Shown here: positions 1-9,984 of the stretch, one piece after another | How positions within the stretch are numbered: position 1 is the stretch's first letter | Layout: every line of letters starts with the position of its first letter | NCBI RefSeq assembly: GCF_000027125.1 | Contig: NC_017626.1 | Length of the DNA stretch: 64,000 nt | Strand: one strand, 5' to 3' | Source of the DNA: Escherichia coli 042 | Lineage (GTDB): Bacteria > Pseudomonadota > Gammaproteobacteria > Enterobacterales > Enterobacteriaceae | The notes under the pieces: model-generated | Told to the model about the DNA's origin: nothing | The model's input: only the letters and a program-made list of their open reading frames with translations | The model's database searches: none | Made by a program: the position numbers and the translations under genes

Positions 1-1309
1 CCGCCGCGAGTTGTGGGAAGCGATTGAAGCAGGCGATTTTCCGGAATACGAACTGGGCTTCCAGTTGATTCCTGAGGAAGATGAATTTAAGTTCGACTTC
101 GACCTTCTTGATCCAACTAAACTTATCCCGGAAGAACTGGTGCCCGTTCAGCGTGTCGGCAAAATGATGCTCAATCGCAATCCGGATAACTTCTTTGCCG
201 AAAACGAACAAGCAGCATTCCATCCAGGTCATATTGTTCCTGGTCTGGACTTCACCAACGATCCCCTGTTGCAGGGACGTTTGTTCTCCTATACCGATAC
301 ACAAATCAGTCGTCTTGGTGGGCCGAATTTCCATGAGATTCCAATTAACCGCCCGACCTGCCCTTACCATAATTTCCAGCGTGACGGCATGCATCGTATG
401 GGGATCGACACTAACCCGGCGAATTATGAACCGAACTCGATCAACGATAACTGGCCGCGCGAAACACCGCCGGGGCCGAAACGTGGCGGTTTTGAATCAT
501 ACCAGGAACGCGTGGAAGGAAATAAAGTTCGCGAGCGCAGTCCATCGTTTGGCGAATATTATTCCCATCCGCGTCTGTTCTGGCTAAGTCAGACGCCATT
601 CGAGCAGCGCCATATTGTCGATGGTTTCAGTTTTGAGTTAAGCAAAGTAGTTCGTCCGTATATTCGTGAGCGCGTTGTTGACCAGCTGGCGCATATTGAT
701 CTCACTCTGGCCCAGGCGGTGGCGAAAAATCTCGGTATCGAGCTGACGGACGACCAGCTGAATATCACCCCGCCTCCGGACGTCAACGGTCTGAAAAAGG
801 ATCCATCCTTAAGTTTGTACGCCATTCCTGACGGTGATGTGAAAGGTCGCGTGGTAGCGATTTTACTTAATGATGAAGTGAGATCGGCAGACCTTCTGGC
901 CATTCTCAAGGCGCTGAAGGCCAAAGGCGTTCATGCCAAACTGCTCTACTCCCGAATGGGTGAAGTGACTGCGGATGACGGTACGGTGTTGCCTATAGCC
1001 GCTACCTTTGCCGGTGCACCTTCGCTGACGGTCGATGCGGTTATTGTCCCTTGCGGCAATATCGCGGATATCGCTGACAACGGCGATGCCAACTACTACC
1101 TGATGGAAGCCTACAAACACCTTAAACCGATTGCGCTGGCGGGAGACGCGCGCAAGTTTAAAGCAACAATCAAGGTCGCTGACCAGGGTGAAGAAGGGAT
1201 TGTGGAAGCTGACAGCGCCGATGGTAGTTTTATGGATGAACTGTTAACGCTGATGGCAGCACACCGCATGTGGTCACGCATTCCTAAGATTGACAAAATT
1301 CCGGCGTAA
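1..1309 (+). CDS. katE: Catalase HPII, C-terminal part (5' end lies outside the window)
   Basis: ORF track 11..1309; reading frame continues open to position 1; translated sequence recognised as the C-terminal region of the large-subunit catalase; gene order katE followed by chb operon as in E. coli. Confidence 0.85.
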
Positions 1310-1355
1310 ATATGGATAAGGTCACGCCCCCTGGGGAGTGACCTTACCACCTTAC

Positions 1356-7426: not shown

Positions 7427-8254
7427 ATGACATTGCAACAACAAATAATAAAGGCGCTGGGCGCAAAACCGCAGATTAATGCTGAAGAGGAAATTCGTCG
7501 TAGTGTCGATTTTCTGAAAAGCTACCTGCAAACTTATCCGTTCATTAAATCACTGGTGCTAGGGATCAGCGGCGGTCAGGACTCCACGCTTGCCGGTAAG
7601 CTGTGCCAGATGGCGATTAATGAGCTGCGCCAGGAGACCGGCAACGAATCACTGCAATTTATTGCCGTACGCCTGCCCTATGGTGTTCAGGCTGACGAAC
7701 AAGATTGCCAGGATGCCATTGCCTTTATTCAACCGGATCGCGTATTAACCGTTAATATCAAGGGCGCGGTATTGGCCAGCAAACAGGCGCTGCGCGAAGC
7801 GGGCATTGAACTGAGCGATTTTGTTCGTGGCAATGAAAAAGCGCGTGAGCGGATGAAAGCACAATATAGCATTGCGGGCATGACCAGCGGTGTCGTGGTG
7901 GGCACCGATCATGCAGCAGAAGCCATTACCGGATTCTTCACTAAATATGGTGACGGCGGTACGGACATTAATCCGCTGTATCGTCTCAACAAACGCCAGG
8001 GTAAACAGTTACTGGCGGCATTAGGTTGCCCGGAACACCTTTATAAGAAAGCCCCAACGGCCGATCTGGAAGATGATCGCCCTTCTCTGCCAGATGAAGT
8101 GGCACTCGGCGTGACCTATGACAATATCGACGACTATCTGGAAGGGAAAAACCTACCTGAACAGGTCGCCAGAACAATAGAGAACTGGTATCTGAAAACC
8201 GAACATAAACGCCGTCCGCCAATTACCGTTTTCGATGATTTCTGGAAAAAGTAA
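7427..8254 (+). CDS. nadE: NH3-dependent NAD+ synthetase
   Basis: 275 aa ORF with SGGQDS PP-loop motif ([13 protein letters not shown]). Confidence 0.95.
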
Positions 8255-8292
8255 TAATTTGCACATATTGGTTTGTGCGAAAAAGAGTACTT

Positions 8293-8330
8293 TGTTCACG
8301 CCGGATGCGGCGTGAACGCCTTATTCGCCC
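8293..8330. repeat. REP (repetitive extragenic palindromic) element
   Basis: Sequence GTTCACGCCGGATGCGGCGTGAACGCCTTAT matches the E. coli REP consensus core GCCGGATGCGGCGTGAACGCCTTAT; intergenic between nadE and cho. Confidence 0.7.
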
Positions 8331-8450
8331 CACAAAACTATGCAAATTCAATATATTGCATGAGTCGAATAGGCCTGACAGGCGTAGCACGTCAGACGGT
8401 GTAACCTTTGTCATCAACCCGCCTCTTTTTTAATCGCTCCCCGCCTGTTA

Positions 8451-8470
8451 CACTGGATAGATAACCAGCA
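8451..8470 (+). promoter_or_regulatory. Candidate LexA (SOS) box upstream of cho
   Basis: CACTGGATAGATAACCAGCA, a CTGG-N8-CCAG palindrome resembling the LexA consensus CTGT-N8-ACAG, 14 bp upstream of the cho start; cho is a known SOS gene. Confidence 0.45.
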
Positions 8471-8483
8471 TTCGGAGTCAACA

Positions 8484-9984
<1,501 letters not shown>

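Follow-up and report, generated by a model that had tools for sequence, protein, structure and literature searches.

The DNA analyzed here is a stretch of 64,000 nucleotides from Escherichia coli 042 (RefSeq assembly GCF_000027125.1, contig NC_017626.1), referred to below as the window. It contains nadE (7427..8254, plus strand), whose product in K-12 is the NH3-dependent NAD+ synthetase, followed by cho (8484..9371, plus strand), with both open reading frames (ORFs) matching K-12 in order and products. The spacer between them (8255..8483) aligns with its K-12 counterpart without gaps, at 220 of 229 identical positions. A previous sequence-only reading had placed a REP element in this spacer and named alignment to the REP consensus and to the K-12 spacer as the appropriate checks. 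Both alignments bear the claim out, with the gene order as described and 31 of 34 bases matching the consensus of a y-type REP. The spacer as a whole is strongly structured, its predicted RNA fold being better than that of 200 out of 200 shuffled sequences (z = -3.4), and the DNA fold of the interval 8273..8420, which proved to be the full extent of the repeat, reaches z = -4.7. Scans of 8150..8560 for promoters and terminators returned no sequence resembling either consensus. Pattern scans with a few REP signatures, together with an Rfam scan, detected no further convincing REP or BIME elsewhere in the 64 kb. The RepRanger supplements hold no entry for nadE or cho, and the NC_000913.3 annotation consulted carries no REP or BIME features anywhere, even around rayT, so that their absence from its nadE-cho spacer is uninformative.

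The spacer is also covered by an antisense ORF of 64 amino acids (8223..8417, minus strand) with a TTG start, which is a mechanical prediction and not a gene. A Pfam search of its translation returned no family, and none of the RefSeq genomes inspected has a gene annotated over this interval. The earlier suggestion that this ORF is spurious thus holds, but its attribution to the REP palindrome is unnecessary, since the surrounding 4 kb contain 35 ORFs of at least 40 codons and the ORF requires no special explanation.

The REP itself, GCCGGATGCGGCGTGAACGCCTTATTCGCCCCAC (8300..8333), is of the y type and, read on the plus strand, lies in the CTAC ('iREP') orientation. A search of the 64-kb window with the y consensus yielded this site as the single match, with three mismatches, and none of 100 shuffled sequences gave a match; the consensus derived from 92 copies of the repeat family, GCCGGATGCGGCGTGAACGCCTTATCCGGCCTAC, returned the same 31 of 34 positions. 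Another form of the REP 5' consensus, GCCKGATGNCGRCG, was out of register and did not match, and the data-built consensus was used in its place. The site is an imperfect palindrome within the 30-40 nt typical of REPs; it is extragenic and belongs to a high-copy sequence, given that individual E. coli genomes contain from 22 to more than 40 matches to the segment 8294..8405 among those listed. It departs from the REP definition at the foot of the palindrome, where the conserved GTAG/CTAC tetranucleotide is replaced by CCAC. This tail varies by lineage, reading GACCTAC in most E. coli, GACCTAT in K-12 and GCCCCAC in E. coli 042, and the CTAC is intact in sister species. The Rfam model of naRNA4 (REP325) gave a partial match to the y REP that, at 23 bits, stayed below threshold.

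The most conspicuous palindrome at this position is a different structure. A perfect 10-bp hairpin, GTTCACGCCG-GATG-CGGCGTGAAC (8294..8317, with fully complementary arms at 8294-8303 and 8308-8317), pairs GTTCAC from the sequence to the left of the REP with GTGAAC from the REP loop, thereby competing with the canonical REP stem. The canonical y hairpin has a predicted stability of only -11.6 kcal/mol in the window, compared with -21.3 kcal/mol for the consensus, because its stem has been weakened by the change of ATCCGGC to ATTCGCC. The flank-to-loop hairpin, by contrast, reaches -17.9 kcal/mol, compared with -16.1 kcal/mol for the family consensus, in which it contains one G.U pair, and it was chosen in all folds of Escherichia spacers. 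Copies from Pseudocitrobacter show two mismatches in this pairing, indicating that it is not a covarying feature of the family. The sequence-only reading, which described a clear REP palindrome at 8293..8330, was accordingly right about the presence of a REP, but the perfect palindrome it saw is the flank-to-loop hairpin rather than the canonical stem, and its interval is a hybrid that overlaps the REP, adds 7 nt of the left flank and stops 3 nt short of the end of the REP tail.

The y REP does not stand alone. It forms one arm of a composite element of about 148 bp (8273..8420), whose span is conserved across 54 family copies and whose organization corresponds to that of the BIME-1 (RIB/RIP) type. 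The element begins 19 nt past the nadE stop codon, is co-oriented with nadE and lies within the nadE 3' untranslated region, that is, at the 3' end of a transcription unit. Its left flank (8273..8299; family consensus ending in TGACAAAGTGCGCTTTGTTCAT) is recognizable by rising information content in the family alignment and matches the consensus at 73% of a 22-nt core. The y REP is followed by a 35-nt L linker (8334..8368; family consensus AAAATCATGCAAATTCAATATATTGCAGAAACCTT), whose core TGCAAATTCAATATATTGCA (8341..8360) is an exact 20-nt match. Beyond it lies a second, inverted REP in the GTAG orientation, ATAGGCCTGACAGGCGTAGCACGTCAGAC (8369..8397), which is strongly decayed: it agrees with GTAGGCCTGATAAGCGTAGCGCATCAGGC at 23 of 29 positions, the lowest value among 55 copies, and its hairpin has a predicted stability of -7.7 kcal/mol, compared with -12.9 kcal/mol for the consensus. 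We take this REP to be of the z1 type, going by the definition in the text of PMC3333891 and the general z1 consensus. The element ends with a right flank (8398..8420; consensus AATTTTGCGTTTGTCATCAGTCT) that is defined by the family alignment and matches at 61%. As defined by Ton-Hoang et al., BIME-1 elements combine inverse y and z1 REPs with a long, conserved L linker, often containing an IHF site, and occur as single copies per locus (PMC3333891, summarizing Gilson et al., 1991; Boccard and Prentki, 1993; Oppenheim et al., 1993). All of these features are found here, including the exact linker core and its presence as a single unit in the nadE-cho spacer. Judged by its sequence, the palindrome is thus a genuine REP within an element of an already known kind. 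The earlier label of a REP element was correct for the y REP but captured only one arm of the composite, leaving out the linker, the second inverted REP and the flanks.

The linker includes an IHF-type core, ATTCAATATATTG (8346..8358, plus strand), which fits WATCAANNNNTTR with one mismatch. The spacer has no other such site, although 78 sites of equal quality exist in the 64-kb window; the motif match by itself being weak, the weight of this assignment comes from its membership in the L linker, for which an IHF site is reported (PMC3333891). IHF reportedly binds to this linker (Boccard and Prentki, 1993), and we regard the core described here as a candidate IHF site.

The layout of linker and REP recurs elsewhere in E. 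coli genomes, and the family could be sampled more widely. A scan for the linker core in one genome per bacterial species identified 84 loci, nearly all of them in Escherichia and Pseudocitrobacter, and a consensus built from 92 copies with full flanks from these two genera shows the same five-part layout, which the window matches from end to end. Over 143 columns, the window copy is 77.6% identical to this consensus, compared with a family median of 88.1% that leans towards well-kept copies because of the sampling by exact linker match; only 3 of 54 copies score lower. By unfiltered count, the linker core is flanked by both the CTAC and the GTAG REP ends in 74 of 95 copies from other genomes. 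Six of the 95 matches keep neither tetranucleotide, a number equal to that of the non-enterobacterial loci in the scan. Two linker-core matches were found on short contigs, one of 261 bp assigned to Methylobacterium frigidaeris (L068), where the exact core sits in a full E. coli-type y-L-z1 sequence, and the other of 262 bp assigned to Desulfosporosinus sp. OT (L011); both contigs probably represent contaminating enterobacterial DNA. Escherichia sp. MOD1-EC7003 carries seven linker-core matches at a spacing of 107 bp (L078:2719-3380, L085). Five closely similar y-L-z1 copies, with flanks running into the next unit, are seen in L085, whereas BIME-1 is described as single-copy in PMC3333891.

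The state of the two REP ends bears on the mobility of the nadE-cho copy. Both binding and cleavage by TnpA_REP require the GTAG tetranucleotide and a mismatch in the stem (PMC3333891). In the window, the tetranucleotide is lost on both arms, which now read CCAC and ATAG, making mobilization by the REP transposase (TnpA_REP/RayT) unlikely. The copy is probably immobile and beyond recognition by this enzyme, and no sign of recent movement was found at the nadE-cho locus, where the element is orthologous across species. REPs are also known as targets of some insertion sequences (PMC1525189). The sequence-only reading had brought up this general property, which is correct as such but finds no support at nadE-cho, where 5425 of the 5426 complete E. 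coli genomes have the spacer without a break.

Comparison with related species constrains the age of the element. E. whittamii shows the order osmE-nadE-element-cho and Escherichia sp. E1V33 the order element-cho, both with consensus GTAG and CTAC. The spacers of Salmonella, Citrobacter sedlakii, C. freundii and two relatives, in contrast, span only 93-131 bp, and neither the linker nor a second REP was found in them. They carry one short palindrome, GCCGGAYA...TRTCCGGC, in place of the element and realign with the E. coli spacer directly after its right flank. These findings place the origin of the composite in the Escherichia lineage, where it formed either at the site of an older REP-like hairpin or directly on top of it. 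By its distribution, the composite is vertically inherited and fixed in E. coli, and its arrival can be dated only to the interval from the Salmonella/Citrobacter split to the separation of E. coli from E. whittamii and E1V33. Every E. coli sampled shows the same six changes in the second REP, none of which occurs in the sister species. All of them, including GTAG to ATAG, are transitions, and one pair (T to C together with A to G) preserves a base pair. In all DNA fetched, this decayed z1 variant occurs only at the orthologous nadE-cho locus, and the spacers at the loci of the Cho homologs P0003, P0004 and P0019 carry the E. coli-specific substitutions. E. coli CP52E has a spacer whose left half resembles that of Escherichia sp. 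E1V33 and whose right half is typical of E. coli (L087:262-495), which suggests a recombination junction inside the element.

Another copy of the repeat offers a useful comparison. The K-12 katE-chbG spacer, located about 7 kb from nadE-cho, contains a near-consensus BIME-1 with both GTAG and CTAC intact, together with an extra REP (L001:1160-1375). E. coli 042 lacks this block of about 210 bp and retains only a short hairpin, GGTCACGCCCCCTGGGGAGTGACC, at approximately 1270..1345 of the window, and only 1931 of 5426 genomes carry the K-12 arrangement in full. The contrast between this polymorphic locus and the fixed element at nadE-cho points to young copies being polymorphic and the nadE-cho copy being old.

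Immediately beyond the element, the spacer leads into the upstream region of cho. The segment GCCTCTTTTTTAATC (8421..8435), at which the outgroup spacers resume their alignment, shows close conservation across Salmonella, Citrobacter and E. coli. It is followed by a LexA-box-like sequence, CTGGATAGATAACCAG (8453..8468, plus strand), whose CTG-N10-CAG pattern is found in all 10 spacers compared. Among the SOS genes listed for Salmonella is ydjQ (equivalent to cho), with a LexA box (PMC8072944). The LexA-like box overlaps a possible -10 hexamer, which reads TACACT here and TATACT in the outgroups. Some loci with E. coli-type spacers (L092, L097 and L099) encode Cho products of 268, 270 and 255 amino acids, compared with 295; at L092, the cho start and ves lie 81 nt closer together, suggesting an in-frame deletion in cho, and at L099 the LexA box is altered (CTTGAT...) and the T run is shorter. 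The ves gene (HutD family), which overlaps the cho 3' end, occurs in the window, at these three loci and in C. freundii (L096), and absent from the Salmonella and C. sedlakii loci as well as from L093 and L098.

The two halves of the element have diverged at different rates. In a comparison of the window with E. whittamii, a single species pair with 61 sites in the left region, the left flank and y REP differ at only 3 of 61 positions (5%), whereas the second REP and the spacer beyond the element differ at 20 of 92 (22%), the third codon positions of nadE at 74 of 276 (27%) and those of cho at 31 of 143 (22%). The left region is slower with p = 7.5e-5 relative to the nadE third positions and with p = 0.005 relative to the right half. 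The nadE-proximal half has thus changed about five times more slowly than synonymous sites, whereas the z1 REP (7 of 29 differences when taken alone, against 22-27% at third positions) and the downstream spacer have diverged at a neutral rate equal to that of the cho third positions. A hairpin of -14.5 to -27 kcal/mol follows closely on the nadE stop codon in every species compared. The left flank is not universally kept, its sequence being quite different in both Escherichia sp. E1V33 and E. coli CP52E. Moreover, gene conversion from other REP copies could hold the y REP near its consensus and thereby mimic constraint, although, as a counterpoint, variants of the nadE-cho locus such as TTATTCG are common to several species.

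Several other explanations of this sequence have to be considered. The simplest, a lone REP in the nadE-cho spacer, accounts for the y REP match and nothing else; with the linker, the inverted second REP and both flanks matching the family consensus end to end, it is refuted as a complete description, and we give it hardly any credence. Nearly as implausible is a small-RNA gene of the ES036 (CssrF) family, an assignment that arises from the match of the Rfam model RF02751 ("ES036 (CssrF) sRNA") to 8334..8376 (plus strand). The match covers the full model and, at 38.9 bits, lies just over the gathering score of 37.6, and cssrF was named from a northern band of about 290 nt at dacB/yhbZ in Shigella (PMC3071730). 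However, the 43-nt consensus of RF02751 consists of the BIME-1 linker plus GTAGGCCT of the next REP, and the model also matches the linkers of 13 of 15 unrelated BIME-1 copies from several species. In K-12, it scores 42.9 bits at the nadE-cho copy and 55.5 bits at the second element in the katE-chbG spacer (L001:1220-1262), and the window copy ranks among the lowest scores seen; nor does the scanned interval 8150..8560 contain a promoter-like site. Given its matches to many unrelated copies, RF02751 appears to model a dispersed repeat, and its match is no evidence of a small-RNA gene here.

A role of the hairpin as the intrinsic (Rho-independent) terminator of nadE is improbable, even though a strong GC-rich hairpin lies 40 nt past the nadE stop codon and a conserved T run exists at 8426..8431. 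Such terminators consist of a GC-rich hairpin immediately followed by Ts, whereas here this T run is more than 100 nt downstream and none directly follows the hairpin; the scan of 8150..8560 found no terminator, and the outgroup hairpin likewise stands apart from the T run. It is less probable still that the element would tune the LexA-controlled cho promoter from upstream, through DNA bending by IHF. The position of the IHF-type core, about 100 bp upstream of the LexA box, would suit such a role, but the promoter region and LexA box are also kept in Salmonella and Citrobacter, where the linker is missing, indicating that the promoter does not need it. More serious is the proposal that the entire element is a dead, functionless BIME-1 that persists simply because its deletion brings no benefit. 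The neutral divergence of the z1 REP, the loss of both GTAG motifs and the rank of the copy as the fourth most diverged of 55 are all in line with it, as is the dispensability of the near-consensus copy at katE-chbG, absent from E. coli 042. The slow change of the left flank and y REP, the uninterrupted fixation of the spacer in E. coli and the retention of a hairpin at the equivalent place in the outgroups speak against it, and we consider a pure fossil rather unlikely. We favor the view, which we hold with good confidence, that the REP forms the arm nearest to nadE in an old, decayed BIME-1 (RIB/RIP-type) element, present as a single copy at 8273..8420, whose proximal half may still be useful and whose z1 REP is probably a fossil.

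Placed beside known systems, the nadE-cho element agrees with BIME-1/RIB/RIP in its inverse y and z1-type REPs, with GTAG ends facing a long linker that carries an IHF-type site, in its conserved outer flanks and in its single-copy, extragenic position at the 3' end of a transcription unit. It deviates from the type in the mutation of both tetranucleotides, six substitutions in the z1 stem, a weakened y stem and a flank-to-loop hairpin that has become perfect, and it is among the most diverged copies. With a single y REP or palindromic unit it shares the 31 of 34 matching positions downstream of a gene, but the REP is not alone here, and its own stem is not the most stable local structure. The REPINs described together with RAYTs (Bertels and Rainey; PMC3116915, PMC3337134) likewise pair two inverted REPs across a spacer, the whole being able to fold as a single long hairpin, and K-12 contains the E. 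coli RAYT gene, rayT; the nadE-cho copy differs from them by the loss of the recognition tetranucleotide on both arms and by its orthology across species. BIME-2 elements, which comprise a y REP, a short S linker and a z2 REP in tandem arrays and contain gyrase sites (PMC6379681), share the y REP, whereas the nadE-cho element differs in its long L linker, its z1-type partner and its single-copy state, with nothing pointing to gyrase targeting. The likeness to ES036 (CssrF), finally, is limited to the full-length linker match above the gathering score, and what this match signifies is a BIME-1 linker rather than a small-RNA gene.

The history of the locus can be summarized as follows. The composite arose in the Escherichia lineage at a site where related genera have only a short GC-rich hairpin; it is now fixed in E. 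coli after vertical inheritance, and it is decaying, through the transitions in the z1 REP and, in E. coli 042, the loss of the CTAC of the y REP. REPs and BIMEs reportedly protect mRNA from 3' exonucleases or attenuate read-through (Newbury et al., 1987; Espeli et al., 2001), and the sequence-only reading had likewise mentioned the stabilization of upstream mRNA. Such stabilization is plausible here, with indirect support from the slow change of the nadE-proximal half and from the hairpin that the outgroups retain at this position. The hairpin at 8294..8317, together with a linker hairpin behind it, may block 3'-to-5' exonucleases and/or attenuate read-through towards cho, and the intact linker core may bind IHF and bend the DNA, with the distal z1 REP probably being a neutral fossil. 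The most likely role of the element would thus be that of a hairpin protecting the nadE mRNA 3' end or attenuating read-through, combined with an IHF site. A further, tentative possibility, which we regard as somewhat doubtful, is that after the element had become immobile, its proximal half (the hairpin at 8294..8317, the y REP and perhaps the IHF linker) came under selection as a replacement of the ancestral post-nadE hairpin, leaving the distal half to decay.

For the annotation of this region, the spacer should be labeled as a BIME-1 (RIB/RIP) element at 8273..8420, and neither as a lone REP, nor as a gene for the 64-aa ORF, nor as an "ES036 sRNA"; beyond this correction, the importance of the element is small. 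RF02751 appears to model the linker of a dispersed repeat, a point for curation, and its matches in enterobacterial genomes should be read accordingly. The locus offers a natural ageing series, leading from the short hairpin of Salmonella and Citrobacter through the intact composite of the sister Escherichia species to the half-decayed copy fixed in E. coli, which may be useful for studying how REP-type repeats age and whether the host retains parts of them for its own use. If the selective retention of the proximal half were true, the nadE-cho element would represent a small, datable case in which half of a selfish repeat has been taken for use by the host.
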